Shown: positions 472 to 44,162 of the stretch, piece by piece | Layout of the letters: each line of letters opens with the position of its first letter | How positions within the stretch are numbered: the first letter of the stretch is position 1 | Assembly: GCA_964620655.1 (NCBI GenBank) | Contig: CAZUJW010000007.1 | Span: forward strand, 1-53,267 | Source: an uncultured Christensenella sp. | GTDB lineage: Bacteria; Bacillota; Clostridia; Christensenellales; DTU072 | Direction of reading: 5' to 3' | Length of the DNA: 53,267 nucleotides | Program-made: the position numbers and the translations under genes | The notes under the pieces: model-generated | What the model saw: the letters and a program-made list of their open reading frames with translations, nothing else | Told to the model about the DNA's origin: nothing | Database searches by the model: none

Positions 472-684
472 ATGAAGGTAAGCTACAAAAAACTATGGAA
501 ACTCCTTATCGATAAGGATATGAAGAAAAAAGATTTGCGGATTGCTACGGGAATAACCACGACGGCACTTGCGAAGCTCGGCAAAAACGAACACGTCAGC
601 ACCGAAATTCTTGCAAGAATCTGCAAAGTTCTGAATTGTGATATCGGAGACATTGTTGAAGTCGTGAACGAGGAGAAAGAATGA
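472..684 (+). CDS. Cro/C1-type (XRE, HTH_26-like) transcriptional regulator
   Basis: MKVSYKKLWKLLIDKDMKKKDL...CDIGDIVE is the typical small clostridial HTH; ATG 472 follows GAGG. Confidence 0.9.
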   Translation: MKVSYKKLWKLLIDKDMKKKDLRIATGITTTALAKLGKNEHVSTEILARICKVLNCDIGDIVEVVNEEKE

Positions 685-1694
685 TGCCGAACGAAATTCA
701 ATTTGTATTATATAATATCGACAAAGAAGATGTAAACGTAAAAGTCGCCATAAAAGACGACACAATCTGGGTTACGCAACGCGGTATGGCGGAGCTTTTT
801 GATTGCTCTGCCGACAATATTTCTTTGCACTTAAAAAACATTTATCAAGACGGAGAATTACAAGAGTCTGCAACTGCCGAGGATTTCTCGGTAGTTCAGA
901 TCGAGGGTTCTCGTCAAGTATCGAGAAATTTAAAGTTTTATAATCTCGACGCCATTATATCCGTCGGATACCGCGTAAACTCTCGTCGCGCCACACAATT
1001 CCGCATCTGGGCGACGAACGTATTGAGGGAATTTATCCAAAAAGGCTTTGTGCTTGACGACGACCGCTTGAAGCAAGGCGAAAGCGTTTTCGGGAAGGAT
1101 TATTTCCGCGAGTTGCTCGAAAGAGTCCGTTCAATCCGCGCGAGCGAGCGCAGAATATGGCAACAAATCACCGATATTTTTGCCGAATGCAGTATAGATT
1201 ACGATAAAAATTCCCCCGTCACGCAAGAATTTTACGCCACCGTGCAAAACAAATTCCATTATGCCATTACGGGACAAACGGCGGCGGAAATTATTTACGA
1301 CAAAGCAGACAGCAAAAAAGACCATATGGGACTTACGACGTGGAAAAACTCCCCCGACGGAAGAATTTTAAAATCCGACGTAACCATAGCCAAAAACTAT
1401 CTCGACGAAAAACAGATACGCAGGCTGGAAAGAACTGTGTCCGGATTTTTCGATTATGTGGAAGATTTAATCGAAGAAGAACGCACCTTTACAATGCGGC
1501 AATTTGCAGAATCCATAAATGCGTTTTTAGAGTTCCGCAAATACAAGATTTTGCAAGGTAAAGGCTCGGTCTCAAAACTCGAAGCCGACAGAAAAGCCGA
1601 ACGGGAGTACGACGCGTTCAACAGAACGCAACAAATAACGTCCGACTTCGACAGACAAGTCAAAAAACTGCTTGACGGCAAAAAAGATGATTAA
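681..1694 (+). CDS. rhuM: RhuM-family (virulence RhuM) DNA-binding protein
   Basis: Motifs W.TQ..MAELF, YNLDAIISVGYRVNS.RATQFR.WAT, GLTTWKNSP.GRILKSDV.IAKNYL. Confidence 0.9.
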   Translation: MMPNEIQFVLYNIDKEDVNVKVAIKDDTIWVTQRGMAELFDCSADNISLHLKNIYQDGELQESATAEDFSVVQIEGSRQVSRNLKFYNLDAIISVGYRVNSRRATQFRIWATNVLREFIQKGFVLDDDRLKQGESVFGKDYFRELLERVRSIRASERRIWQQITDIFAECSIDYDKNSPVTQEFYATVQNKFHYAITGQTAAEIIYDKADSKKDHMGLTTWKNSPDGRILKSDVTIAKNYLDEKQIRRLERTVSGFFDYVEDLIEEERTFTMRQFAESINAFLEFRKYKILQGKGSVSKLEADRKAEREYDAFNRTQQITSDFDRQVKKLLDGKKDD

Positions 1695-1742
1695 TTTTTA
1701 ATACAATCAAATTTATTTAGTAGTAATAAGGAGAAACAGTTT

Positions 1743-3443
1743 ATGCCGACGTTGGAATGGATAGGAAAGGAAAAAGTAATCAATCATCATCAGGACGTGC
1801 CTTTCCGTCTGTTGGATAAAAAATATACGTACAATGCGGAAAACTCCGAAAATATGATTATTCATGGGGACAATCTGCTTGCGCTTAAATCCCTTCTTCC
1901 CGAATACGAAGGGAGGGTTGATTGCATTTACATAGATCCGCCGTATAATACAGGGAAAAAGGAAGGACAATGGGTCTATAGCGACAATGTGAATGACCCA
2001 AGAATTAAAAAATGGATCGGCGAAGTGGTTGGCACAGAAGGCGAAGATTTATCAAGACACGATAAGTGGCTCTGTATGATGTATCCTAGATTAAAACTTT
2101 TACACAAATTGCTGTCTAACAAAGGTGTTATTTTTATTAGTATTGATGACAATGAGTTAGCGAGCCTTAAACTGTGTTGCGATGAAATTTTCGGCTCTAG
2201 TAATTTCATAGGATATCTTTCCGTTGAAATAAACCCAAAAGAAAGAAAAAATTCGGATTATATATCTATTAGCAACGATTATTGTGTTATATACGCTAAA
2301 AATAAAAAAGATACATATTTCTTGGAGAATATTCCTAAGGATAAAAAAGATTTATCTGTTGATGAAAACGGAAATTTAGTTCATAACAGTGGCAAACGTG
2401 TACTAGTCGGTGAAAATTCATTTAATAATATAGTTCAAGATTTTAACTCTAAAAAGCATTATACTGTTTACTATAACGCTGAACAATGTGATATGATATT
2501 AAAAAAAGAAACATCGTTAAGCGAGATGGACGACAAGTTGATATCTAAAGGATATGTGAGATATTGTTCTTACTCCGCTGAAAACTTTGTAGAAAACACT
2601 TATACTGCTGAAAAAATAGTTGAACTGTTTGAAAATAAAGCTTTAGACTTTAAAAATGGGAAAATTTACGAAAAGAATTTTAGCAGTTCTATTAGAATAA
2701 AAAGCATTCTTTCAAATAGAAATTATCAAACTTACGATTCTAATGGAAATATTATAGATTATAAAATAGATGTAAAAACTACTTCGGCTGGACAAGAATT
2801 AAAAGACATTTTTGAAACAACGGCTACGATTTTCAATAATCCTAAAAATAAAGGGTTGATAGAAATTCTAATTTCTTTGATTGACAATAAAAACGCCTTG
2901 GTTTTAGACTCTTTTGGCGGCTCAGGGACAACCGCACATGCTGTTTTAGACTTAAACAAAAAAGGCGGCAATAGAAGATTCATTCTCGTGGAAATGATGG
3001 ACTATGCTGACACCGTTACTGCCGAGAGGGTGAAACGTGTAATTGACGGTTACGGTGAAGGAAATAAAGCGGTTGAAGGATTGGGCGGAGATTTTTCTTA
3101 TTACGAGTTAGGTATGCCCCTTTTCGACGAGGATAAAAATCTGAACGAGGACGTGCCGGAAAAAGAAATCCGCAAGTACGTTTACTATATGGAAACGAAA
3201 CAGCGGATAGAAGCGCATACGGACGACAACGAGTATTTTCTCGGCAAGCACAACGATACGGCGTATTACTTCTACTACGAAAAAGAAAGATTGACCACGT
3301 TAAACGCGGAATTTCTTGCTACCGTAAAGACAAAGGCGACAGGGTATCTGATTTACGCCGATGTGTGCGCGCTTGCAAAAGACATGCTGGACGAATACGG
3401 GATTACATTCAAAAAAATTCCGCGCGACATTAAAAAACTGTAA
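1743..3443 (+). CDS. mod: Type III restriction-modification DNA methyltransferase (Mod)
   Basis: GDNL..LK, IYIDPPYN catalytic motif, VLDSFGGSGTT SAM-binding motif; directly upstream of Res. Confidence 0.9.
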   Translation: MPTLEWIGKEKVINHHQDVPFRLLDKKYTYNAENSENMIIHGDNLLALKSLLPEYEGRVDCIYIDPPYNTGKKEGQWVYSDNVNDPRIKKWIGEVVGTEGEDLSRHDKWLCMMYPRLKLLHKLLSNKGVIFISIDDNELASLKLCCDEIFGSSNFIGYLSVEINPKERKNSDYISISNDYCVIYAKNKKDTYFLENIPKDKKDLSVDENGNLVHNSGKRVLVGENSFNNIVQDFNSKKHYTVYYNAEQCDMILKKETSLSEMDDKLISKGYVRYCSYSAENFVENTYTAEKIVELFENKALDFKNGKIYEKNFSSSIRIKSILSNRNYQTYDSNGNIIDYKIDVKTTSAGQELKDIFETTATIFNNPKNKGLIEILISLIDNKNALVLDSFGGSGTTAHAVLDLNKKGGNRRFILVEMMDYADTVTAERVKRVIDGYGEGNKAVEGLGGDFSYYELGMPLFDEDKNLNEDVPEKEIRKYVYYMETKQRIEAHTDDNEYFLGKHNDTAYYFYYEKERLTTLNAEFLATVKTKATGYLIYADVCALAKDMLDEYGITFKKIPRDIKKL

Positions 3444-3453
3444 GAGGTGGGAT

Positions 3454-6048
3454 ATGGAATTAAAGAATTTTCAGAAACGAGTGATAAACGACCTTAACAG
3501 ATATTGCGAACTCCTGAACGAAACGGACAGTGTTTCGGGCGCGTACAAAGCGTTCTGGGCGGAAAAGAACGTTACGGTAGGTTTCGGAGGTATGCCCTCT
3601 TACAACAATACGATTGAAAACACTCCGCACGTTTGTTTCAAGGTGCCGACGGGCGGCGGAAAAACCTTTCTGGCGTGCAACGCCTTAAAAACCATTTTCG
3701 GCAATTTGCCGAGCAAGAAGGCGCAACTCGTCGTGTGGCTTGTGCCGTCGGAGGCGATTCTGTCGCAGACGTTGAAAAATCTTTCCGATCCTATGCACGA
3801 TTACAGGCGGAAAATCGAAGCGGATTTTAACGGGCGCGTGCAGGTTTACAGCAAACAGCAGGTTTTGGACGGGCAACAATTCAATCCGACGACGGTGAAC
3901 GAACAACTCAGTATCGTCGTTATGAGTTTCGACAGTTTCCGCATAAAGAACAAGGAAGGTCGTAAGGTATATCAGGAAAACGGGAATTTACAGTCCTTTT
4001 CAAAGTTTATCCCCACGCCCGACACTCGTATAAAGGACGTGGACGACACCGCGCTTATTCAGGTATTCAATCAACTTTCGCCCGTAGTTATCGTGGACGA
4101 AAGCCACCATACCACCGGCGAACTCAGTATCGAGATGCTAAAAAATCTCAACCCGAGTTTTATTCTCGACCTTACGGCAACTCCAAGACAAAACAGCAAT
4201 ATTATTTCATACGTAGACGCGGCGCAACTCAAAGCCGAAAATATGGTAAAACTGCCCGTCATCGTGTATAATCGTCCTTCGCAGGAAGAAGTGATTGCCG
4301 ACGCACTGGATTTGAGAAATAAACTGGAAGAAACGGCACGCGCCGAAGCGAGCGGAAGATATATTCGTCCTATCGTGTTGTTTCAGGCGCAACCCAAACA
4401 AGCCGAAAATAAGGAAACGTTTGAAAAACTTAAAAAACGGCTTGTAGATAACGGTATTCCCGAAGAAGAAATCGCCATCAAAACGGCGGAAATAAACGAA
4501 CTGAAAAGCGTAGACTTACAATCGTCCGATTGCAAAATCAAGTACATAATTACTGTAAATGCGCTTAAAGAAGGTTGGGATTGTCCGTTTGCGTATATTC
4601 TCGCAACGCTTGCAAACAAGAAATCTACCGTTGACGTAGAACAGATTTTAGGGCGAGTTCTGCGGTTGCCATATACGCAACAGAATGACAGTAAGTTTTT
4701 GAATTTGTCTTACGTGCTTACCTGCTCCAACGACTTCCATATGACGATTACGAAAGTAATAAAGGGCTTGAACGACGCAGGTTTCAGCGAAAAAGAATAT
4801 CGTATTGCCGAAGAAAAACCGATTGTAACAACGCCGGTACCCGTTCAGGAAAAAGTAGATTTCGTCACGGAAGAAGAATTTTTGCAATTTGACGACGATG
4901 CGTTGAAAGAGATTATCGACCGCAGACAAAATGCGGACGAAACGAACGTAATCGACGCTATGCTCGAAAGCGCGGAGGCAAACAGCGACGCTTATGACAC
5001 CGCATTAAAACAAGCGGAAGCGGAACCCGTAGGCGATTTGCCGTTGGAGGTGAGAAGCAAAGTGAACACATATCCTATTTACGAGCAATTCAGGGAAGAA
5101 GCATTGTCGCTCGAAATCCCGCAGTTTTTTGTTAAAACACCGCCGAGCATTTTTACAATGCTCAATCCCGATGATAAATCTCTTTTGGCAAAAGAAGATT
5201 TGTCGGACGGTTTTATGCTCAAAGACAAGGATGCAACCATAGATTTCGGCTCGGCTTTGGAATCCGTCGTTGAGGTTGACGTTCAAAAGAACGAGCGTCC
5301 GAAATACAGACAACTATCCGAAACGGAAAGCGAATACTTCAAAGGAATGTTGAAGAATTTGCCGCCAGAAAGCCGTGTAAGAAACTGCAAATTGGCGATA
5401 AAAAGTATTCTGGAAAAGACGGACAGCGTTGCGGGAAGTGATTTAACGGCGTATATCAATCGTATCGTCGAAAATATGAACGGCGACGAACTTGTTGCTA
5501 TGGAAAATAATATTTACGGGTATGCGGCGAAAATCAAATCGAAGATTGAAACGCTGCTCCACGAATACCGCAGACAAAAATTCAATCACCTGCTTGAAAC
5601 GGGGCAGATAGAATGTCTGCCGTCGTTCAGATTAAAAAGAGAAATCAATCCGGGAACTCCGTTTGGACTTCTTTCAAAGTCGCTTTATACGTCGGAACAA
5701 GCGATTAATAATTTTGAACGCAAAGTTATCGAAAAAGTATCTGCACTGCCCAACTTCAGGTGGTGGCACAGAAATATGGACAGGCTTGAGTTTTTCATAA
5801 ACGGATTTTTGAACCACTATCCCGATTTTATCGTAATGACAAACAGCGGAAAAGTCGTTATGATAGAAACCAAAGGCGAACATCTTGTATCCAACGATGA
5901 TAGTCGCGCAAAAGCGGAACTCGGTAAAATCTGGCAGGCACAAGCAGGAGGACAGTATCGTTATTATATGGTTGGTGAATACGACGTCGCAAGCAATCCG
6001 AACGCTATATCCCTCGACGAATTATTAAAGATAATGAGCGAGTTGTAA
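3454..6048 (+). CDS. res: Type III restriction endonuclease / helicase subunit (Res)
   Basis: PTGGGKT Walker A, DESHH, LTATP, LKEGWD, QILGRVLR, C-terminal YPDF..IETKG nuclease motif. Start reassigned to ATG 3454 after the GAGGTGG RBS. Confidence 0.9.
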   Translation: MELKNFQKRVINDLNRYCELLNETDSVSGAYKAFWAEKNVTVGFGGMPSYNNTIENTPHVCFKVPTGGGKTFLACNALKTIFGNLPSKKAQLVVWLVPSEAILSQTLKNLSDPMHDYRRKIEADFNGRVQVYSKQQVLDGQQFNPTTVNEQLSIVVMSFDSFRIKNKEGRKVYQENGNLQSFSKFIPTPDTRIKDVDDTALIQVFNQLSPVVIVDESHHTTGELSIEMLKNLNPSFILDLTATPRQNSNIISYVDAAQLKAENMVKLPVIVYNRPSQEEVIADALDLRNKLEETARAEASGRYIRPIVLFQAQPKQAENKETFEKLKKRLVDNGIPEEEIAIKTAEINELKSVDLQSSDCKIKYIITVNALKEGWDCPFAYILATLANKKSTVDVEQILGRVLRLPYTQQNDSKFLNLSYVLTCSNDFHMTITKVIKGLNDAGFSEKEYRIAEEKPIVTTPVPVQEKVDFVTEEEFLQFDDDALKEIIDRRQNADETNVIDAMLESAEANSDAYDTALKQAEAEPVGDLPLEVRSKVNTYPIYEQFREEALSLEIPQFFVKTPPSIFTMLNPDDKSLLAKEDLSDGFMLKDKDATIDFGSALESVVEVDVQKNERPKYRQLSETESEYFKGMLKNLPPESRVRNCKLAIKSILEKTDSVAGSDLTAYINRIVENMNGDELVAMENNIYGYAAKIKSKIETLLHEYRRQKFNHLLETGQIECLPSFRLKREINPGTPFGLLSKSLYTSEQAINNFERKVIEKVSALPNFRWWHRNMDRLEFFINGFLNHYPDFIVMTNSGKVVMIETKGEHLVSNDDSRAKAELGKIWQAQAGGQYRYYMVGEYDVASNPNAISLDELLKIMSEL

Positions 6049-6136
6049 CTGAACAAAGATATTCTTGTTTAGTGTGGTGATCTTTATTGTTTTTTTCGGA
6101 ATAATATGATAAAATAAAATTAGGAGGCGTTCTATA

Positions 6137-7015
6137 ATGAATAACAATAATATTCTTAATAGATTTTTCTCCAGGTCAATCCTTAATGAGATTGTAGTGA
6201 ATGGACACAACACTTGCTATGGAGAAATAATAAAAAGGTATTCCATTGATAAAGACGAAACGAATCAAACTATAATTTCGTCAATCTATTCGGTTTTAGC
6301 ATCTTCTCATCGAAATGAGTATTTTTATAAAAATACACTTTTGAACAATTTGATCATTAAAAAGCATAAATTGTATACAACCAAAGTGCTGACAGAACTG
6401 CCTATTAACAAGTCTATTGCCGATTTTATCACACTTAATGGAAAAGCTGTGGTATACGAAATAAAAACAGAATTAGATAACTTGGATAGAATCGAAGCAC
6501 AAATTCGAGATTATTATAAGTGTTTTCCCTTTGTTTGTATTGTTACTTGTAAAACACATTTGCCCAAAGTTAAGGAATTGTTCGCTAACACTAATGTTGG
6601 CATATATTGGTTTACTAACAGAAATGCTATCAAGGTGGAGCAAGAACCCCAACTGGAAGATTCTTATTTGGAATATGGCGCATTGTTTAAATTGCTACGA
6701 AAATATGAATTTGAAACCATATTGAAGAAAAATTTCCATTCATTGCCAAAAGTATCGCAATTTGATTATTATGCTGAATGCTATAAGTGGTTTATCAAAA
6801 TTGATATTAACAGAGTATTAAAAGATATGCTAGATATTCTAAAGCAACGTTGTATAATACGCGTCGAACAGTTTAATCAAGTTCCATTAGAATTAAAAAT
6901 GTTGGTGTACCAATCTAATTATACTGATAAACAGTATTCTATGCTGGAAACGTTCTTAAATTCAAAATATATCGACGGAGGGCTTGAAAATGTATTTCCC
7001 GTATTTGAGGGGTAG
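6137..7015 (+). CDS. sce7726-family protein, PD-(D/E)xK nuclease-like
   Basis: RNEYFYKN..., EL..NKSIADF...VYEIKTELDNLDR..QI.DY: a D..EIK nuclease-type motif; first gene of a trio. Confidence 0.75.
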   Translation: MNNNNILNRFFSRSILNEIVVNGHNTCYGEIIKRYSIDKDETNQTIISSIYSVLASSHRNEYFYKNTLLNNLIIKKHKLYTTKVLTELPINKSIADFITLNGKAVVYEIKTELDNLDRIEAQIRDYYKCFPFVCIVTCKTHLPKVKELFANTNVGIYWFTNRNAIKVEQEPQLEDSYLEYGALFKLLRKYEFETILKKNFHSLPKVSQFDYYAECYKWFIKIDINRVLKDMLDILKQRCIIRVEQFNQVPLELKMLVYQSNYTDKQYSMLETFLNSKYIDGGLENVFPVFEG

Positions 7016-7913
7016 ACAATTTGAATTGCTTGCAATTCGAGAACTAATCGAACATAACTGTATATCGAATAATATTATACCAATAATAGAACCTGTTAGA
7101 GCTTCTTCTACTTTGTTAAAAACGATTATTCAATGCAAAGAAGCAAAGCAGCATATTGCTTTTATAATAAACCCACATGTCGGATCTTTTTCTAAAGAGT
7201 TTAGAGAATTTGAAAAAAGTAACGAACTTTTAACAGCTATTAAAGATTCAACTATAAAGGCTTGCGTTGTAGATCAATCCATTAACGATCAAGTCAATCG
7301 TCTAACAAAGACCTTTAATTCATCAATAGAGGACTCCTTGTTTGTTTTCGATAAAAAGGATTATATTGAATCATATTTATTGGCCATCAATAATAGCCAC
7401 GCTAAATTCAATCTTATTCCAGATGAAAGGGATTTTCGTAGAAGTATTCGAGATAACAGAGTATTATTAAGTGATGCTTTTGACTCAAAAGATCGTAATT
7501 CTGACTATTCTGATGCGCCAGAATTGTATTCACGAGATCAAATATATTACAAAGAAGATGGGTATATAGGATTTGCGGATTATTCGATAGTAGGAAATAG
7601 GTTTTCGGAAGCAGGTTTTGCTCCATATTGTTTAGTTATACATATTGTTTATTTTGATGAGAAAAATCAATTACTAATTAGACATTTTAAATCATCTTCA
7701 AATGAAGATGCAACCGACCCTGCCAACAAATTTAGAGAAGCCTTACAAAAGTTGCTTTTATGGAATGAGAAACAAAAATTAGATACATATGCGATGCGTC
7801 AATTTAAAAAGATGTATGAAGATGGGGCCTATCCAGGATTAGGGACAATTAAAAAGTTATCATTAATGCACCATATAGAATTGGTAAACAAATTTCTTAA
7901 TGAACCGCTATGA
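6990..7913 (+). CDS. sce7725-family protein (Beta-protein-like)
   Basis: MYFPYLRGRQFELLA.REL, PIIEPV, GFADYSIVG...GFAPY...IH, GLG.IKKLS..HH. Start ATG 6990 follows GGAGG and overlaps the previous gene. Confidence 0.75.
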   Translation: MYFPYLRGRQFELLAIRELIEHNCISNNIIPIIEPVRASSTLLKTIIQCKEAKQHIAFIINPHVGSFSKEFREFEKSNELLTAIKDSTIKACVVDQSINDQVNRLTKTFNSSIEDSLFVFDKKDYIESYLLAINNSHAKFNLIPDERDFRRSIRDNRVLLSDAFDSKDRNSDYSDAPELYSRDQIYYKEDGYIGFADYSIVGNRFSEAGFAPYCLVIHIVYFDEKNQLLIRHFKSSSNEDATDPANKFREALQKLLLWNEKQKLDTYAMRQFKKMYEDGAYPGLGTIKKLSLMHHIELVNKFLNEPL

Positions 7914-8998
7914 AAATATGTAAAAATTGTTTTGCCGATATCGAATTGAAGACCATCGTTTCAAGCCATAGACAAATAGGCGTATGTGATATATGTGGAC
8001 ATGAGGATTATATTTATGACACGACCTTGAATAGTGCATTGATTGATACCATTGACGATTTTATGAATATTTATTCAAAAGCCAATGATGATACTCCTCA
8101 AAAATATAGGATGAACTTAGAAAAGGAACTAATTTATAATTGGAATATCTTTTCGATAAGTTGTGCATACAAAGTAAAGAAGATAGTAGATAGTATATAT
8201 GCATTTTCTGAAGACACAAAAAAGAGATTTGACACTACATTGTTTGATGGAGATGTATATATTCCTTACTTTTTAAATAGTGATTATTTAGAACTGCACT
8301 CTATTATTAAAAATAAACAGTGGGACGAGTTTACATATAGTATAAAACACATAAACAGGTATCACTCAGATATTTTAAACAAAGAACAACTTGATTGTTT
8401 TCTTGATCCACTGGTTATCGATATAAATATTGGTACGCATTTTTATAGGTCGCGCATTTCAGACATCAAAGGGTTTTCTGCTTCTGAAATGGGAATGCCT
8501 CCAACCGAAAGAGCTAGGGCGGGAAGAATAGGAGCGGAAGGAATCCCCTGCTTTTATCTGGCAAACGATGTCGATACATCTATAAAAGAAGTTCGGGCGG
8601 GGGCTTTTGATTATATTACGGTTGCAAAATATAAAGTTAAAAACCCTATTAAGGTTGTTGATTTGAGATTATTAGATCATATTAGTCCTTTTTCAATATC
8701 GGATCCAGCAACCCTTGCGATTAATCGAGAAACGTTATTAAGAATTAAATCTGAAGTAGAAAAACCTGTGCGGCTCATAGAAAACAGTATTGAATATGTT
8801 CCAATTCAGTTTATTTGTGATTACATTAGAAGTAAAGGATATGACGGAATAATTTACAGTAGCACAATGAGTACTACAGGGTACAATCTATCAGCATTCT
8901 CTTCAGAGAATTTCAAATTTGTGAGCAAAGCAGTATATTACATTAAAGATATATCAGTGGTTTCGGAAAAAGCGACAAAACACACAAAAATCGAATAA
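7910..8998 (+). CDS. RES-domain protein with N-terminal Cys/zinc motif
   Basis: CKNC..CDIC N-terminus; FYRSR, GR.GAEGIPCFYLA, EVR, YDGIIYSS carry the R/E/S signature; ATGA overlap with sce7725. Confidence 0.85.
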   Translation: MKICKNCFADIELKTIVSSHRQIGVCDICGHEDYIYDTTLNSALIDTIDDFMNIYSKANDDTPQKYRMNLEKELIYNWNIFSISCAYKVKKIVDSIYAFSEDTKKRFDTTLFDGDVYIPYFLNSDYLELHSIIKNKQWDEFTYSIKHINRYHSDILNKEQLDCFLDPLVIDINIGTHFYRSRISDIKGFSASEMGMPPTERARAGRIGAEGIPCFYLANDVDTSIKEVRAGAFDYITVAKYKVKNPIKVVDLRLLDHISPFSISDPATLAINRETLLRIKSEVEKPVRLIENSIEYVPIQFICDYIRSKGYDGIIYSSTMSTTGYNLSAFSSENFKFVSKAVYYIKDISVVSEKATKHTKIE

Positions 8999-9086
8999 TA
9001 CAGCTATGCTTTTGGGTAAGATTTTTTTATGAGTTTCTCTATTATATATTGACTTAGTTTTTAGAGAAAATCTCAATAACACAAAT

Positions 9087-9122
9087 AAGAAAGTCTGATT
9101 TCGGTCAGTCTTTCTTTTTTTG
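9087..9122 (+). terminator. Rho-independent terminator after the RES gene
   Basis: AAGAAAG-T-CTGA / TCAG-T-CTTTCTT stem plus T tract. Confidence 0.65.
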
Positions 9123-9165
9123 CGTAGTTGTCAAAAAAATTTTTGCAATTTTTTCTTAATAACCT

Positions 9166-9546
9166 TGTAAAACCCATTGTCAAATGTCCTATATAAGTGA
9201 GGGACATTTTTCTTTTGCGAAAAACACGAAGTTTTTGCCCTCTATTGTCCATATAAAGAGAAAAAATCTTTGCCTTAATGAAAAGTTTCCAGTAAACCAT
9301 TAAGTTTCGTACCGAAAATGTCCAATATAAATAGAAGGAGTTTTAAGATTTTTTCTAAAACACCCCGCCAAAAGGTATGGTAAGTGTCCAATTATAGTAG
9401 GAGGATTTTTTGAAAAAGTTCAGTTAAATACCCTAACAAAGAGATGAAAACTTTCCAATATAAATAGAGGATATTTTCAAAAACTTACGAAAAACACCCC
9501 CTCAAACAGGCAAGCAAATGTCCATATATAGTGAACGGAAAAGGAG
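9166..9546 (+). repeat. Degenerate six-unit array, period about 61-73 bp
   Basis: TCC(A)ATATA..AG..G(A)GG cores with TCC at 9187, 9248, 9321, 9387, 9454 and 9521; four are preceded by AAA(C/T)AC 22-23 bp upstream. Confidence 0.7.
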
Positions 9547-9795
9547 ATAACAGATCATGAGTTACAAACAAGTGTACCCGCCTTAGCAGGCAGAAAACGG
9601 AAAGCAAAAGCCCAAAAAAAAATTGGAAAACGAGTACTTTTTACAAGCAGGATAAGGTTTTTGCAATCTATTTCAAAAACGATACGCTGAACAAGTCGGA
9701 AACCGACTTTTCGGAAAGGGCAACATTTGCTCGTATCCACAAGAAGAAATCGCCCTACTCTTACTAAAAATATCGGCGGACTAACGAAAAAGCAC

Positions 9796-9824
9796 TTGAC
9801 TTACGCACACAAAGCGTGTAAAAT
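9796..9824 (+). promoter_or_regulatory. sigmaA promoter for the RHH-recombinase module
   Basis: TTGACT-17-TAAAAT; the spacer contains the palindrome ACGC-N7-GCGT. Confidence 0.65.
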
Positions 9825-9871
9825 ATAGTCGTCGTATTAATACGATTATATATTCACGGAGGAATGAAAAG

Positions 9872-10162
9872 ATGGCAAAGTCAAGAAAGGAAAAAGACAA
9901 AAGATACGAAGAAAGGCACAAGGAAGAACGCAAAGCCAAAAACGTTATATGGGGAACGAGCGTTCCGAGAAAGACGGCGGAAGAAATAAACGAGTTTCTG
10001 AAAAAGTGCGGCTATACGAAGGTAGAACTTATACAGGCGGGCTACGAAGAACTGTTAGCCCGACACGATACCGCCTTTGCAAAATTAAAGGACGGCTACG
10101 ACGACTTTTTCGAGAGCGAACTTACGAAATTCGCAGAAGAAAGAAACACAAACAAAACATAA
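9872..10162 (+). CDS. Small protein, ribbon-helix-helix-like
   Basis: GGAGG RBS; a charged N-terminus is followed by a beta(VIWGTSVP)-helix-G-helix pattern. Confidence 0.6.
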   Translation: MAKSRKEKDKRYEERHKEERKAKNVIWGTSVPRKTAEEINEFLKKCGYTKVELIQAGYEELLARHDTAFAKLKDGYDDFFESELTKFAEERNTNKT

Positions 10163-10285
10163 TCCGTAAGACGAGATACTCTCGCCTTGCGGAAATCTGA
10201 GATAAGGAGGATTTTGCGGTAATGGTGAGAGAACATTACAGCCATCAGGAAAGAGAACATAGTATCCGCGCAATAAGTATGAACG

Positions 10286-10483
10286 TTGAAGCGGATACAA
10301 GAAAACACCGTTGAGGTCAATCTGTCAACGGAACACAAAGAAAAAGGCAGATTAAATCTGCCGAAAGAAAGAATACAAACAAGCGCAAAAATTTTAGCCG
10401 ATATTTTACTCGATTATGCGAGAAACGGCGGTAATATGGACGATTTAACGCCCGAGAGCGTATTCGGCAGGAGGAAGCAATGA
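10286..10483 (+). CDS. Small hypothetical protein overlapping the recombinase start
   Basis: 65-aa ORF with TTG start and weak RBS; its stop overlaps the recombinase ATG. Confidence 0.4.
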   Translation: MKRIQENTVEVNLSTEHKEKGRLNLPKERIQTSAKILADILLDYARNGGNMDDLTPESVFGRRKQ

Positions 10484-12105
10484 AAAAACGAGTAGTGATA
10501 TATGCAAGATTCAGTTCGCACAGTCAGACGGAACAGTCTATCGAAGGACAACTTCGGGAATGCTACGAGTATGCAAAAAGACAAGACCTTCTCGTTGTAG
10601 CCGAATACATAGACCGTGCGCTCACGGGGACTACGGACAAACGACCGGAATTTTTAAGAATGATTGAGGACAGTAAGAAAAAGACTTTCGACTATGTTCT
10701 TGTTTACCAACTTGATCGCTTTGCCCGTAACCGTTACGACAGCGCGAATTACAAAGCAAAGTTAAAGAAAAACGGCGTACGTGTTCTATCTGCAAAGGAA
10801 AACATAACGGAAGACGCAAGCGGAATTTTAATCGAGGGCGTGCTGGAAAGTATGGCGGAATATTATTCCGCCGAACTTTCGCAAAAGGTAAAACGCGGAA
10901 TACGCGAAAGCTACGAAAAAGGTTACTTCATCGGCGGATACGGTTTATTTGGTTATGATATCGTAGATAAAAAATGGGTAATAAACTCTTTTGAAGCAGA
11001 TATTGTCAGAGATATTTTTACAAGATACAAAAATGGCGAAAAGGCGAAAGAAATTATTGCAAGGCTGATCGGACAAGGCATTAAGACGAAAGCCGGTTCG
11101 TCGTTCAATATGAACAGTCTTGCAAGGATAATCCGCAACGAAAAATACATCGGGAAAGTAACTTCGCACGACACGGTTTACACTAACGTCATACCGCCTA
11201 TCGTGGACGAAGAACTTTTTTATGAATGCAACGCCATTATGGACAAGCATAAACATAAACCGCGCGACAGCAAGAGCGAACAGCCATATATTTTAAGCGG
11301 AAAATTGTTTTGCGGATTTTGCGGTAGTCTGATGACCGCCGAAACGGGGACAAGCCATACAGGTAAACTTCATCACTATTACAAGTGTTTCGGAAGAAAA
11401 CGCAACAAACACAGTTGTAAAAAGGCAAATTACAGACAGCAAGACCTTGAAGATCTGGTATTCGGCACGACGGTTAAATACGTTCTGCAACCCGACGTAA
11501 TTCAAACCGTTGCCGAACAGGTCGTTTCAAAATTCAATTCGGAGATAACAAAGACCGCAACGCTTGAAAATCTCGAAAACGAGTTGAAAGCCAAAGAAAA
11601 AGCGATAAATGCACTGCTTGCCGCCATAGAACAAGGCATAGTGACTAAATCCACCAAAGAACGACTGATTTCTCTCGAAACGCAAAAAGAGGAATTAGAG
11701 AGCAAAATTTCTCTTGAAAAGGCTCGGCAGATAAAACCGCTCGAAGTGGACAGAGTAAAAGCGTTTTTAACCTATTTTGCCCGTAAAAAGTATGAAAACG
11801 GGCAAGAAAAAAACGAGTTTTTCAACTCGTTCATAAACCGTGTTATTTTGTATGACGACAAAATTTTAATCTTTTACAACACCGACGATAATCACCCGAC
11901 GGTAATTAAGAGGAAAGACACGGAAGAATTTATTTCGCACTTTAATGACATAGCGAGCAACTGCAAAACCGCAACAAACGACTGTCCGAACACAACGGGA
12001 AACAACAGCCCCATCGTACAAAAGGAAAACTCGCTTGAACCTCAATGGTTCAAACGAGTTTCACTTGGCGGAGCCGAAGGGATTCGAACCCTTGTGCCAA
12101 GTTAA
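10480..12105 (+). CDS. Large serine recombinase (integrase)
   Basis: YARFSS catalytic Ser, SIEGQ, LDRFARN, recombinase domain, LSGKLFCGFCG..YYKC zinc ribbon and coiled coil. The last ~13 codons are read from the tRNA antisense strand. Confidence 0.95.
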   Translation: MKKRVVIYARFSSHSQTEQSIEGQLRECYEYAKRQDLLVVAEYIDRALTGTTDKRPEFLRMIEDSKKKTFDYVLVYQLDRFARNRYDSANYKAKLKKNGVRVLSAKENITEDASGILIEGVLESMAEYYSAELSQKVKRGIRESYEKGYFIGGYGLFGYDIVDKKWVINSFEADIVRDIFTRYKNGEKAKEIIARLIGQGIKTKAGSSFNMNSLARIIRNEKYIGKVTSHDTVYTNVIPPIVDEELFYECNAIMDKHKHKPRDSKSEQPYILSGKLFCGFCGSLMTAETGTSHTGKLHHYYKCFGRKRNKHSCKKANYRQQDLEDLVFGTTVKYVLQPDVIQTVAEQVVSKFNSEITKTATLENLENELKAKEKAINALLAAIEQGIVTKSTKERLISLETQKEELESKISLEKARQIKPLEVDRVKAFLTYFARKKYENGQEKNEFFNSFINRVILYDDKILIFYNTDDNHPTVIKRKDTEEFISHFNDIASNCKTATNDCPNTTGNNSPIVQKENSLEPQWFKRVSLGGAEGIRTLVPS

Positions 12106-12156
12106 TGGCTAACGCATTTCGAGTGCGCCCCGTTATGACCACTTCGATACAGCTCC
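12066..12156 (-). tRNA. tRNA-Ser(CGA)
   Basis: Reverse complement GGAGCTG..GCGCA-CTCGAAA-TGCGT, long variable arm, AAGGG-TTCGAAT-CCCTT, CGGCTCC-GCCA. Confidence 0.97.
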
Positions 12157-41406: not shown

Positions 41407-42096
41407 TTAGTCGTAACCGTCGACGGTATGTTTTACGTCCTGCATTTGAGTGTCCAAAGTTTCGCAAATTGAAGCGCATTTCAGGAGTTTTTCCGAAATA
41501 TCCGCTTGCGTTTTTTCGTCGAGATTTTTTTTGTAGCGGAGCTTGTGTTCAAGGTTAGCCCAGGTTTCCATAGCTATCGTGCGGAGCTGTACTTCGACTC
41601 TCATATTTATCTTTTCGTCGCGTAAAAAGATGGGAGTTTCTATAATAAGGTGCAAGCTGCGGTAGCCGTTCTTTTTAGGGTGTTTTATGTAGTCGCGGGT
41701 TTCTATAAGCGTCACGTCGTCCTGATTTATAAGACAGTCGGCAAGCATATAGATATCTTCCACGAACGAACATATTACTCTTACTCCCGCAACGTCGTTA
41801 AGGCGTTGCACGGAAGAAAAGGTCAGGGGAAGATTTTTTCTTCTCAGCTTTTCAAGGATACTTTCCGGCGACTTTATTCTGCTTTTTATACTCTCTATCG
41901 GGTTGCGTTCGTTCTGCACCGAGAAGCGTTCGTCCAGCACTCTGAACTTCGTTTCCACTTCGAGAGCGGCGCACTTGTAGCACGACATAGTTTCTTTCGC
42001 CTGATCGAGTAAGGCTCTCACGTCGGCTACCGTCACGTCCGTAGGCAGGGAGTCGGCAATTGATTTCATTATCTCTTTATAACTTAGTTCGTTCAT
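41407..42096 (-). CDS. Small alarmone synthetase (RelP/RelQ-like GTP pyrophosphokinase)
   Basis: RIKSPESI.EK, DVAGVRVIC, DYI..PK.NGYRSLH, EVQLRT.AM..WA.LEH...YK. Confidence 0.93.
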   Translation of the reverse strand: MNELSYKEIMKSIADSLPTDVTVADVRALLDQAKETMSCYKCAALEVETKFRVLDERFSVQNERNPIESIKSRIKSPESILEKLRRKNLPLTFSSVQRLNDVAGVRVICSFVEDIYMLADCLINQDDVTLIETRDYIKHPKKNGYRSLHLIIETPIFLRDEKINMRVEVQLRTIAMETWANLEHKLRYKKNLDEKTQADISEKLLKCASICETLDTQMQDVKHTVDGYD

Positions 42097-42203
42097 AACG
42101 ATTATAATTATGCAAAAAACGGCTTAAACGACGCTTAACAAAAATCAGATTTTTCGATAAAATCAAAAGTTGATTAGTCTTAATCAACAAAACGACAAAA
42201 AAC

Positions 42204-42221
42204 TGCGCGCCATAAGCGAGC
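42204..42221 (-). repeat. Displaced end of the tRNA-Arg-associated unit (tRNA 3'-end mimic)
   Basis: TGCGCGCCATAAGCGAGC; GCGCGCCATAAG is identical to tRNA-Arg 44030-44041 and to 43832-43843. Confidence 0.8.
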
Positions 42222-42293
42222 AAAAAAGTGCATCAATTGATTTGAAGTTTAATAGTTTGTTGAAATGTTGTATTTCGCAAGATTTGATTTATA

Positions 42294-43490
42294 TTAATTT
42301 TGCGAAACGAGCCAGCGTGCGATGTCGATGATTCGAACTCCTTCGATTTGGCTTTCAGGATGCTTCGTTCGTGCGATAATGATTTTGGGATAGGCATCTT
42401 TGATTGATAGCAATGGGGCTAATTCTCGTTTTTGAGTTTCGGGACGACTAATATCGTCGCAAACTTGAATATAGGTTTTGAAGCCGTCTTTTATAGCAAC
42501 GAAATCAACCTCTTTTTCGCCTAATTGCCCCACGTAAACCTCATAACCGCGACGCAACAATTCGATTGCTACTATATTTTCATATAAATGACCGTAATCG
42601 GCGTTTTTTGTGCCGATAATTGCATAGCGAAAAGAGAGATCTGCAAGATAGTATTTTTTATCCGATTCCAAATATCGCTTTCCTTTTACGTCGTAACGCT
42701 TAAAAGGGTAGAATAGGAAGCTGCGACAGAGATAATCTATATATGCGCCGCAAGTTTTATCATTGGTTTTGTAGGTGTTTGACGTGAGCGCATTTGCAAT
42801 ATTGCGTATGGACGTTTTGTTGCCCACGTTGTCCATAAGATAATCCGCAATCATATTAAGCAAGTCTTCGTTTTCGATTTTGAATTTTTTAACAATATCT
42901 TTTGTAATAGTGGTGCGGACTATGTTTGCAAGATATTTTCTTGCGTCGCTTTGATTGCTGTATAAATAAGATCCTGCCATACCACCGACAGATACGTAAT
43001 TGTCAAAAGCCTCGTCAATATCGTTTTGCGGATAGTAGGAAAGATATTCCGTAAAAGAAAACGGGAACATGCTGATTTCAAAGACTCGACCGCCGAAGAG
43101 TGTTGCCAAATCGCTAGACAGCAAGAATGCGTTTGAACCAGTGAGGAATATATTGAAACGTTCTTCTTCATACAGGCTATTGATAACGGTTTCAAATCCC
43201 GTGCAAAGTTGTATTTCGTCCACAAAGACAAAGTTTTCTTTGTCCGCAGAATAGTGTTTGACTATATAATCGTATAATGCATCACCACTTTTTAATGATT
43301 CAAATTCTTTCAAATTTAGTTTGATGCGGGTTACGTTATTATTTTCGGATTGCTTTTTGACGTAATCAATGAAGGCATCCATCAATTTTGATTTGCCCGA
43401 GCGACGAATGCCCGTGATAACTTTGATGTCTGGAGTGTTCATGACGTCGATTAGTTGTTGAAGATAGGTCGGTCTTTCGATAAGTTTCAT
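42294..43490 (-). CDS. AAA_14 ATPase with DUF4143 C-terminus
   Basis: GIRRSGKS Walker A, FVDEIQ Walker B, LTGSNA, KYYLAD, EVDFVA...YIQV. Confidence 0.92.
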   Translation of the reverse strand: MKLIERPTYLQQLIDVMNTPDIKVITGIRRSGKSKLMDAFIDYVKKQSENNNVTRIKLNLKEFESLKSGDALYDYIVKHYSADKENFVFVDEIQLCTGFETVINSLYEEERFNIFLTGSNAFLLSSDLATLFGGRVFEISMFPFSFTEYLSYYPQNDIDEAFDNYVSVGGMAGSYLYSNQSDARKYLANIVRTTITKDIVKKFKIENEDLLNMIADYLMDNVGNKTSIRNIANALTSNTYKTNDKTCGAYIDYLCRSFLFYPFKRYDVKGKRYLESDKKYYLADLSFRYAIIGTKNADYGHLYENIVAIELLRRGYEVYVGQLGEKEVDFVAIKDGFKTYIQVCDDISRPETQKRELAPLLSIKDAYPKIIIARTKHPESQIEGVRIIDIARWLVSQN

Positions 43491-43509
43491 GTGCTATCAC
43501 CTCATAATC

Positions 43510-43538
43510 AATATATCTCATTTCGCAAAAATTGTCAA
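43510..43538 (-). promoter_or_regulatory. sigmaA promoter of the ATPase cassette
   Basis: Minus strand TTGACA-17-TATATT. Confidence 0.75.
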
Positions 43539-43636
43539 ATGCAAAAATTGCGAAATAAAACATAATGTACGATATTTTGAATAATTTTGAAAGAAAAATA
43601 ACCTAACTCGGAAAATCAAGTCAGGTTATTCGTGGT

Positions 43637-44018
43637 GAGCCATTCGTATGTACCGTATACTTGTAGTAGTTTTTTAGAGTTTCGTAGCAATACCGTTATT
43701 TGAGCGTGTCGTTACTCATCAGATTTGCCCAAAGGGCAAATTTGCGAATCCCGCGGGATTCGCAGGGCTCGCTTATGGTGAAACAAAAAAGCAACCGATA
43801 TTTCGGTTGCAGTTAAATAAACGGAAAAAGTGCGCGCCATAAGAGAGCCATTCGTATGTACCGTATACTTGTAGTAGTTTTTTAGAGTTTCATAGCAATA
43901 CCGTTATTTGAGTTTATCGTTACTCATCAGATTTACCCAAGGGGCAAATTTGCGAATCCCACGGAATTCGCAAGGCTCACTTATGGTGAAACAAAAAAGC
44001 AACCGATATTTCGGTTGC
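43637..44018 (-). repeat. Two ~174-bp near-identical structured units (period 208 bp) downstream of tRNA-Arg
   Basis: Copies at 43637-43810 and 43845-44018, with 13-bp terminal inverted repeats and internal hairpins. Confidence 0.93.
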
Positions 44019-44028
44019 TTTTTTGTTT
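43989..44028. terminator. 18-bp perfect bidirectional terminator directly after tRNA-Arg
   Basis: AAACAAAAAAGCAACCGA-TATT-TCGGTTGCTTTTTTGTTT; partially duplicated near 43781-43810. Confidence 0.9.
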
Positions 44029-44104
44029 GGCGCGCCATAAGGAGCTCGAATCCCTAACCTTTGGTTCCGTAGACCAACGCTCTATCCAATTGAGCTAATG
44101 GCGC
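44028..44104 (-). tRNA. tRNA-Arg(ACG)
   Basis: Reverse complement GCGCCAT..TTGGT-CTACGGA-ACCAA..AGGGATTCGAGCTCCT-ATGGCGC-GCCA. Confidence 0.97.
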
Positions 44105-44133: not shown

Positions 44134-44162
44134 ATTATAGTCTTAAACCGCCGCATTGTCAA
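44134..44162 (-). promoter_or_regulatory. Consensus sigmaA promoter of tRNA-Arg
   Basis: TTGACA-17-TATAAT on the minus strand. Confidence 0.9.

Follow-up and report, generated by a model that had tools for sequence, protein, structure and literature searches.

tRNA genes are classic landing sites for mobile DNA, and their known occupants are kilobase-scale islands with their own integrase. Analysis of a stretch of 53,267 nucleotides from an uncultured Christensenella sp. (assembly GCA_964620655.1, contig CAZUJW010000007.1, positions 1 to 53,267; this whole stretch is referred to as the window) revealed two members of a unit family downstream of a tRNA-Arg(ACG) gene. By contrast to the known islands this family is ~200 bp in size and gene-less, is found behind at least three kinds of tRNA, and has arms that follow the sequence of the adjacent tRNA. 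The family is apparently undescribed. We tentatively interpret the units as a miniature, non-autonomous, tRNA-targeted integrative element or an element of the MITE (miniature inverted-repeat transposable element) type, which would be moved in trans by a recombinase and would form arrays by tandem duplication.

Comparison of the units across lineages showed a size of about 150 nt from arm to arm, or about 208 bp including the terminator copy. Read in the sense of the tRNA, the T-run of the terminator is followed by an inverted copy of the adjacent tRNA, reaching from the middle of the acceptor back through T-stem and T-loop. Next come a short turn and a direct copy of the 5' strand of the T-stem with TTCG, which together with the end of the inverted copy form hairpin 1. 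The conserved core starts with CAARTTTGCC(3-7 nt)GGCAAAYCTG, termed hairpin 2, and AYGAG; its middle part is variable, AT-rich and 60-70 nt long and is followed by the conserved 3' motif WCGARTG. The last part of the unit is a direct tRNA copy, running from the final two bases of the T-loop via the 3' strand of the T-stem into the acceptor strand, and at some loci on to CCA and into the terminator. Among the related loci (numbered with L), this direct repeat of the tRNA end comprises 18 nt including the CCA in L044 and ~33 nt, extending into the terminator, in L047.

The flanks of the units were scored against five tRNAs, and the cognate tRNA ranked top in every locus for all three segments. 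The comparison of the repeats with the cognate tRNA, which had been proposed in the initial annotation of the window, was thus positive for the inverted 5' arm, for hairpin 1 and for the 3' end. The core has sharp ends, located at the T-loop-like motifs TTCG and CGARTG: L045 and L048, which derive from different metagenome-assembled genomes (MAGs), are identical at 72 of 74 positions starting exactly at TTCGCAAG, with unrelated flanks on both sides, and the window and L042 have ACGGTACATACGARTG in common before they split into their own arms. Both arms carry common indels that are not present in the tRNA: beside the T-loop motif there is an extra RTG/CAG, and the T-stem part has an insertion of 1 nt. 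Each arm is therefore as much a copy of the other arm as of the tRNA. In four loci the 3' part of the tRNA, the terminator and the inverted arm form one long hairpin (z -7.5 to -11.9). L042 also contains a mini unit of ~35 nt (4859-4884), in which only TTCG, hairpin 2 and the 3' motif TACGAAT are retained and which is followed by a terminator.

With a hidden Markov model built from the 5' core, 23 copies were detected, distributed over 13 loci. For the database searches a degenerate pattern was built from the most conserved hairpin and run on GTDB genomes, JGI metagenomes and viral contigs. Its matches were eight loci from GTDB genomes and a single one from JGI metagenomes, all of them in MAGs of uncultured Clostridia or Christensenella-like organisms from gut, rumen or similar sources. 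The pattern had no match in the viral contigs, blastn against plasmid and phage collections gave no hits, and an exact 20-mer had no match in viral and genome collections. Units are located directly past the terminator, within tens of nucleotides, at tRNA-Arg (three sequence variants) and at tRNA-Lys(CTT) (L046). In L048, where tRNA-Asn(GTT) ends an rRNA operon, the unit lies ~250 nt past the terminator, after other tRNA-Asn fragments. The search for copies beside other tRNAs suggested earlier was thus successful with tRNA-Arg variants, tRNA-Lys and tRNA-Asn. Wherever a contig includes a tRNA the unit has the sense of the tRNA, and the orientation is the same in all 23 copies. The tRNA gene is intact at the other tRNA-bearing loci as well, and the downstream genes vary between loci. 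One MAG, BRZ_QM bin111, has units on two contigs, L045 and L046.

Syntenic loci were obtained through homologues of the neighbouring esterase. In a related species (L029) the order RelA/SpoT - units - tRNA-Arg - esterase is kept, with two units and no ATPase. The L038 scaffold carries at least three units and L049 an array of four, L040 has a single, more diverged unit, and L051 contains another diverged copy at an occupied tRNA-Arg site; units at the orthologous tRNA-Arg site thus number 1, 2, at least 3 or 4. The units in L029, L041 and L049 contain no open reading frame (ORF). At the tRNA-Arg site of L039 only the tRNA and the terminator are present, without a unit, and the downstream neighbour differs. 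Contigs of the same strain are identical to the window, all of them occupied, or end inside the repeats. L050 and L052-L061 were examined for empty sites; synteny was lost in these, and none was obtained.

Some of the related loci contain additional small repeats. Between the tRNA and the unit of L048 (2880-3130) tRNA-Asn fragments are found in both orientations and broken at the T-loop: a 20-nt inverted 3' end that includes CCA, part of the anticodon arm and a 5' piece of the T-arm. A second small repeat of ~125 bp, GAGGATAA...GTAAACTCCCTTGTCCTCG, with inverted ends and in tandem, is present in L045 (5100-5500) and L046 (6700-7100), where it sits directly after the units of the same MAG, three times in L045. 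Short CCCCAAAAAA...TTTTTCGGGGACCCCG hairpin modules occur in or beside units (L046 ~6840-6960, L048 ~2960-3020); the second L046 unit has such a module in place of hairpin 2, right after GGGTTCG.

In the window the units are arranged downstream of the tRNA gene as follows, unit 2 being proximal and unit 1 distal to the tRNA.

44134..44162, minus strand: sigma-70-type promoter TTGACA-17-TATAAT upstream of tRNA-Arg (12/12 hexamer matches; a consensus match only)
44028-44104, minus strand: tRNA-Arg(ACG) with encoded CCA (tRNA model score 61.4 bits); its 3' part consists of T-loop TTCGAGC, T-stem TCCTT and acceptor ATGGCGC, then G and CCA
43989..44028: terminator of the tRNA, forming a symmetric hairpin whose 18-bp arms are 100% complementary, with A-tract and T-tract
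43837..43986, minus strand: unit 2 (proximal), complete
43974-43986: 5' arm of unit 2, CCATAAGTGAGCC in tRNA sense
43952-43971: hairpin 1 of unit 2
43928-43952: hairpin 2 of unit 2
43923-43930: CTGATGAG motif of unit 2, followed by the variable middle
43849-43856: 3' core motif of unit 2, TACGAATG
43837-43849: 3' arm of unit 2, GGCTCTCTTATGG
43832..43843, minus strand: second copy of the tRNA 3' end CTTATGGCGCGC, overlapping the 3' arm of unit 2
43811..43831, minus strand: inter-unit spacer ACTTTTTCCGTTTATTTAACT, read directly from the sequences
43781..43810, minus strand: terminator copy before unit 1, GCAACCG/CGGTTGC stem and T-run
43637..43778, minus strand: major part of unit 1 (distal), its core running to ...ACGAATGGCTC before the insertion
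43766-43778: 5' arm of unit 1
43744-43763: hairpin 1 of unit 1
43720-43744: hairpin 2 of unit 1
42222..43636, minus strand: insertion of 1,415 bp splitting unit 1
42294..43490, minus strand: AAA_14/DUF4143 ATPase (Pfam families), 398 aa
42205..42221, minus strand: displaced end of unit 1, with the 3' arm GCTCGCTTATGG at 42210-42221
42205-42216, minus strand: third copy of the tRNA 3' end
42159..42188, minus strand: hairpin GTTGATTAAGACTAATCAAC followed by a T-run, just past the distal copy of the tRNA end, read from the sequence

The presence of two units of ~208 bp downstream of tRNA-Arg(ACG), as annotated initially, was confirmed by direct repeats at 43637-43810 and 43845-44018, which are 174 nt long each, 94% identical and spaced with a period of 208 nt. 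The tRNA 3' end CTTATGGCGCGC has the reverse complement GCGCGCCATAAG, exact matches to which lie at 42205, 43832 and 44030; a count of three exact 12-nt copies of the tRNA end was reached by 0 of 100 shuffles. The inverted repeats that close unit 2 (43837-43849 / 43974-43986) are 13 bp long and complementary at 12 of 13 positions, and if mismatches are allowed they reach ~18-20 bp, into the CGAA/TTCG motifs. Closing repeats of 13 bp had been ascribed to both units; they were found in the proximal one, and the distal unit has no local closure. Its partner arm (42210-42221) is located ~1.5 kb off and matches 43767-43778 perfectly over 12 bp. In tRNA sense a terminator copy precedes each unit, in agreement with the earlier description; the distal copy is reduced to the 7-bp GCAACCG stem with T-run and is terminator-like in the sense of the tRNA only. 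Together, the 3' part of the tRNA, the terminator and the inverted arm after it make up a single long palindrome in the window, with a DNA fold of -27.6 kcal/mol (z -7.6) for 43970-44052. The hairpin at 42159-42188 may be the ancestral terminator of the tRNA trailer; it was not reported by the terminator scan because its stem is AT-rich.

The junction between the two units does not contain a copy of the tRNA trailer. It holds ACTTTTTCCGTTTATTTAACT, which is similar to the distal flank AGTTTTTTGTCGTTTTGTTGA, and after ACTTTTTCCGTTTATTTAACT the sequence resumes in the middle of the terminator. Since the junction copies the distal flank and not the tRNA trailer, serial integration was ruled out as the origin of the array. 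The spacer is conserved, in diverged form, as ACCTTTTTGCCGTCTACTCAACC in the related arrays L029, L038 and L049; therefore, the 208-bp segment was duplicated once, before the species split. The arrays would then have grown and shrunk by unequal crossing-over, which the mosaic units of L049 fit. Distal copies are decayed, for example to CTTGTTGCGG in L029 and L049. In L029 and L041 the tRNA-proximal terminator is a different hairpin (GACTTAGTCC...; L029 5720-5760 compared to 43989-44028 in the window), and the window-type GCAACCG hairpin remains only between the units, which suggests that the segment beside the tRNA has been replaced.

The insertion, which lies in the 3' arm of unit 1, is flanked by a 4-bp duplication, GAGC (42218-42221 and 43637-43640). 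When the two halves of the unit are rejoined, they align end to end with uninterrupted relatives, and the resulting 3' end is that of the L029/L049 units. On the minus strand the insertion contains a terminator-like hairpin (43631-43596), a promoter-like site (43538-43510) and then the ATPase gene. The ATPase matches the candidate single-gene phage-defence family PDC-S01 (PADLOC, E 1.4e-144). The cassette at 42260-43588 is 92% identical in many other metagenomic contigs, in a different context and without units, and because these copies sit in unit-free contexts the ATPase is, judged from sequence comparison, later cargo of the insertion and stands outside the unit family. The converse, that the ATPase is the element's own gene and unit 2 a deletion derivative, was ruled out by the occurrence of this 1.33-kb cassette without units, and it is also contradicted by the uninterrupted units in L029, L041 and L049.

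The ATPase cassette is bracketed on both sides by conserved ATTTCGCAA...TTGCGAAAT palindromes (47-nt imperfect inverted repeats, 42265-42311 and 43517-43563). About a hundred variants of the ATPase with 96-98% protein identity were found, and elsewhere the cassette adjoins reverse-transcriptase (RVT_1) genes or is near integrase or IS110 genes. The cassette thus has the appearance of a mobile defence module with a single gene. The array is adjoined by the gene for a small RelA/SpoT-domain alarmone synthetase (41407-42096, minus strand), which shows a partial match to the defence candidate PDC-S33 (E 1.3e-25, residues 66-180); this match probably reflects the shared domain only.

According to the interpretation introduced above, the element would resemble a mini-island or a CIME (cis-mobilizable element), be of MITE size and have the T-loop/3' half of tRNA genes as its target. 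A replacement tRNA 3' end and terminator would be provided on the tRNA side, and on the far side a 3' fragment of the tRNA would be left as a direct repeat. The recombinase would be encoded elsewhere, candidates being the large serine recombinases located at tRNA genes here and in relatives, or a tyrosine integrase. The inverted tRNA-like arms could fold one strand into a duplex copy of the target site, comparable to CTX-phage attP(+) and integron attC. Arrays of 2-4 copies would result from tandem duplication and unequal crossing-over, and the distal copy in the window would later have been split by the defence-gene cassette. The units look like small mobile DNA specialised for tRNA genes on account of the direct repeats of the tRNA end, the replacement terminator, the strict orientation, and the conserved size and ends around a variable middle. 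Further features of this kind are the sharp core boundaries amid unrelated flanks, the number of different tRNAs occupied and the two unit-bearing contigs, L045 and L046, of one MAG. The varying copy number at the tRNA-Arg site, the fit of the arms to the cognate tRNA, the long hairpins of tRNA 3' part, terminator and inverted arm, the large serine recombinase islands at tRNA genes and the lack of an Rfam match are also in favour of this reading. For Islander, a direct repeat of the tRNA end is defined as the signature of integration into tRNA genes (PMC4383910).

Several points weigh against such an element. A recombinase gene is neither found inside the units nor consistently linked to them in the window and the related loci, and no pair of filled and empty sites was found among near-identical strains, the sole empty site (L039) having another downstream neighbour. 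The common indels of the arms, which are absent from the tRNA, are not predicted by a plain attL/attR model, and a circle of 200 bp is small for double-strand recombination. The inter-unit junction indicates local duplication rather than serial integration, and the covariation of hairpin 2 and the tRNA-sense terminators bracketing every unit fit an RNA equally well. Because neither a near-isogenic empty site nor a linked recombinase was found, and because of the common arm indels, we rate the chances of the mobile element as somewhat short of even. An improbable variant is that the arms are generated or re-templated from the target at each insertion, by a new T-loop-specific mechanism that would leave a core of ~120 nt between one inverted and one direct copy of the target; equivalently, a folded single strand of ~200 nt mimicking the T-arm/acceptor duplex would integrate. 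We know of no element that integrates into tRNA genes as such a folded T-arm/acceptor mimic. Two types of transposition were considered and rejected: for a palindrome-associated element of the IS200/IS605 type, inserted after TTCG with the hairpin at its left end, the right end lacks a matching hairpin in several lineages, and for classical transposition, in which the 12-nt tRNA end would be the target duplication, inverted ends are missing from the sequence that the repeats enclose.

With respect to recombinases at tRNA genes, a 541-aa large serine recombinase is encoded in the window at 10480-12105, downstream of tRNA-Ser(CGA), in an island at 681-12156. Its ORF, as called mechanically, runs through the terminator of tRNA-Ser into that tRNA's 3' end. 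The island beside tRNA-Ser also encodes RhuM, a DNA methylase, a ResIII helicase/restriction subunit and a RES-domain protein, and is probably an integrated defence island; a second copy of the tRNA-Ser end was not found within the window. L049 encodes a 510-aa large serine recombinase (3291-4823) that is 42% identical to the one in the window. The element carrying it interrupts the 3' end of tRNA-Arg near position 3300, between ...CAAGG and GCGCCAAAC..., directly before the array of four units; the 5' part of this tRNA-Arg falls outside the locus.

The initial annotation had offered two possibilities for the units, a tRNA-derived MITE or mini-island and a tRNA-like non-coding RNA. The first is supported by the matching to the cognate tRNA, and the evidence offered for the second fails. 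More generally, we consider it unlikely that the unit is a structured non-coding RNA that is made in tRNA sense, either from a start of its own or when transcription from the tRNA promoter reads through. The RNA would consist of a closing helix, two hairpins and a variable domain, with arms that might serve processing, stability or the interaction with tRNA or tRNA enzymes. The fold of the unit is in line with such an RNA (z -5.9 against shuffles for the minus strand, -4.3 for the plus strand); strong folding of both strands is expected because the DNA is palindromic, and alone it does not identify an RNA strand. Hairpin 2 is kept in all lineages and two of its pairs are changed on both sides, from A-U to G-C in three variants and from U-A to A-U in two, with a covariation score above those of all 500 shuffles and all slid controls. 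Because this pairing is independent of the tRNA and covaries, it is plausible that hairpin 2 forms in a single-stranded nucleic acid. However, 13 of 14 hairpin-2 variants show A·C on the tRNA-sense strand, corresponding to G·U on the opposite strand; single-stranded DNA fits as well as RNA. A DNA hairpin would equally suit the covariation and the loop length, which varies from 3 to 7 nt. The "covariation" of the arms and of hairpin 1 between lineages is no evidence for RNA, since inverted copies of one tRNA segment pair automatically. An RNA would further be in agreement with the conserved single-stranded motifs AYGAG and WCGARUG flanking the variable region, and with the hairpin and T-run preceding each repeat, which act as a terminator in the sense of the tRNA only; yet each unit is separated from the tRNA promoter by a strong terminator, no promoter-like site is present inside the units, and the sharp core boundaries with unrelated flanks are a trait of mobile DNA.

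Stem differences between the two window copies had been taken as a sign of selection on an RNA fold. On the minus strand they do give G-U, as against A-C on the plus strand. The differences were polarised with the L029/L049 lineage as outgroup, showing that of the 11 positions at which the copies differ only two are in robust stems, both C-to-T in the proximal copy; this copy also has C-to-T outside the stems at column 97, plus a polymorphic one at column 14. A third hairpin difference, CCGTGG versus CCGCGG, is an ancestral T at the hairpin tip. The argument is thus weak, because it concerns two C-to-T changes in a copy that has C-to-T outside the stems too. In the closest lineage (Arg-1) the transitions in the three robust stems produce G-U pairs on the strand with tRNA sense, which would favour an RNA, but they coincide with the C-to-T bias also seen outside stems, and RNAalifold detected no compensatory change within this lineage. 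With the models of Rfam 15, matches above the threshold are confined to tRNA and rRNA. Apart from terminator-driven noise, the units have no match in the window (E up to 10) or in nine related loci (E up to 1). The proposed tRNA mimicry stood in so far as CTTATGGCGCGC is present in three exact copies. At the unit end the helix leaves a CGCGCAC/CGCGCAG tail and not NCCA: the window units end with ...CUUAUGG-CGCGCAC or -CGCGCAG, only AUGG of the acceptor strand is paired, and an acceptor-like helix with single-stranded NCCA is not present in them. A tRNA-like RNA is thus not upheld, as there is no match to a tRNA-like or ribozyme model in Rfam and the 3' end is not an aminoacylatable mimic. T-box, Y-RNA-like and tRNA-like RNAs were rejected as candidates for lack of an Rfam hit. 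A hammerhead or other ribozyme (CUGAUGAG...GAAAC) was also rejected: no Rfam or hammerhead model hit was obtained in the window or the nine related loci, other lineages have CUGACGAG or CUGACAAAG in place of CUGAUGAG, the 3' motif reads GAAU/GAGU rather than GAAA, and the proposed helix II does not covary (by eye).

Inert scars are about as doubtful as an RNA. In that case larger islands would have integrated and excised repeatedly at tRNA hot spots, and the att regions and tRNA fragments that they left behind would have been multiplied locally through slippage and would have neither function nor mobility of their own, which is in line with the large serine recombinase islands and the defence-gene cassette that have hit tRNA genes here, with the tRNA-Asn fragments of L048, broken at the T-loop and in both orientations, and the other small repeats, and with the plain tandem duplication at the inter-unit junction and the decay of distal copies. 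Independent decay, however, would not yield the same size of ~150 nt and the same two end motifs behind at least three tRNAs, or a covarying hairpin. Moreover, a near-identical core segment lies between unrelated flanks in two different MAGs, and a larger parent element carrying the core was found in 0 of the 13 loci. A double-strand site for protein binding or switching, either an inverton or a palindromic operator/terminator for the downstream RelA/SpoT-type synthetase or ATPase, is highly improbable. Its size of ~150 bp with inverted repeats of 13-20 bp would be typical of invertons, the unit is located between the tRNA and a co-oriented gene, and as palindromes the hairpins could be bound by a dimeric protein. 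But all 23 of 23 copies have the same orientation relative to the tRNA, by which an inverton was ruled out, the downstream genes differ among loci, the hairpin-2 loop of 3-7 nt would be poorly tolerated by a double-strand dimer site, and the units lack a promoter-like site.

If the units are mobile, they would represent the smallest tRNA-targeted integrative element described and would provide a compact substrate for finding the recombinase and the recognition of T-arm-like sites, possibly as folded single strands. If they encode an RNA, it would be a new class of RNA linked to tRNAs, in Clostridia of gut and rumen that are abundant but uncultured. In both cases short-read assemblies are broken at tRNA loci by the arrays, which also mark hot spots of defence-gene accumulation, here of the PDC-S01 candidate.

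Compared with known systems, the units share with tRNA-like structures and with small RNAs from tRNA 3' trailers the position in the tRNA trailer, the T-loop-like TTCGA and the copy of T-stem and acceptor 3' strand. They differ from these in that the window units lack an NCCA-ended acceptor helix and lie behind a strong terminator, and in that the units match no tRNA, tmRNA, Y-RNA-like or other Rfam model. Bacterial MITEs (Correia, RUP and ERIC-type) are likewise small and non-coding, have terminal inverted repeats and a long hairpin, and occur in multiple copies with conserved ends and a variable middle. In contrast to these, the units have no target-site duplication at the inverted repeats (the flanks are ...TTTGTTTCA and CGCGCAC...), and their repeats change with the neighbouring tRNA instead of being fixed element ends; they are found strictly at tRNA 3' flanks in one orientation, and no parent insertion sequence is known.

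Islander-type tRNA islands (PMC4383910) are similar in their location on the 3' side of an intact, restored tRNA, the direct repeats of the tRNA end and the replacement terminator. They are defined with an integrase, whereas the only ORF between the repeats here is the AAA_14/DUF4143 ATPase. CIMEs (PMC5704250) resemble the units in having no recombination genes; the units are gene-less and flanked by tRNA-end repeats, and tandem arrangements are common to the units, tRNA islands and CIMEs. From both the units differ by the combination of an inverted and a direct tRNA copy, by arrays that arose through local duplication and not accretion, and in that no cognate integrase was found. Decayed integrative and conjugative or integrative and mobilizable elements differ from the units, which are ~200 bp long and have a size and core ends conserved in several lineages; simple decay of such elements is disfavoured because the 150-nt size is conserved in several lineages.

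In CTX phage, two inverted dif-like sites let the single-stranded attP(+) fold into the substrate for integration (PMC4246890). Compared to this system and to integron attC sites, the target of the units is a segment of the tRNA T-arm and acceptor and not dif or attI, XerCD or attC box sequences are not present, and the whole element is only ~200 nt long. The likeness, one of sequence and predicted folds, consists in inverted target-like copies ~50-125 nt apart that would anneal within one strand, in the position of both inverted copies together at one end after integration, in tandem copies, and in stems that are kept while the loop length is tolerated. As with annealing half-sites, the arms of the unit pair in P1, and the 3' part of the tRNA pairs with the inverted arm across the terminator.

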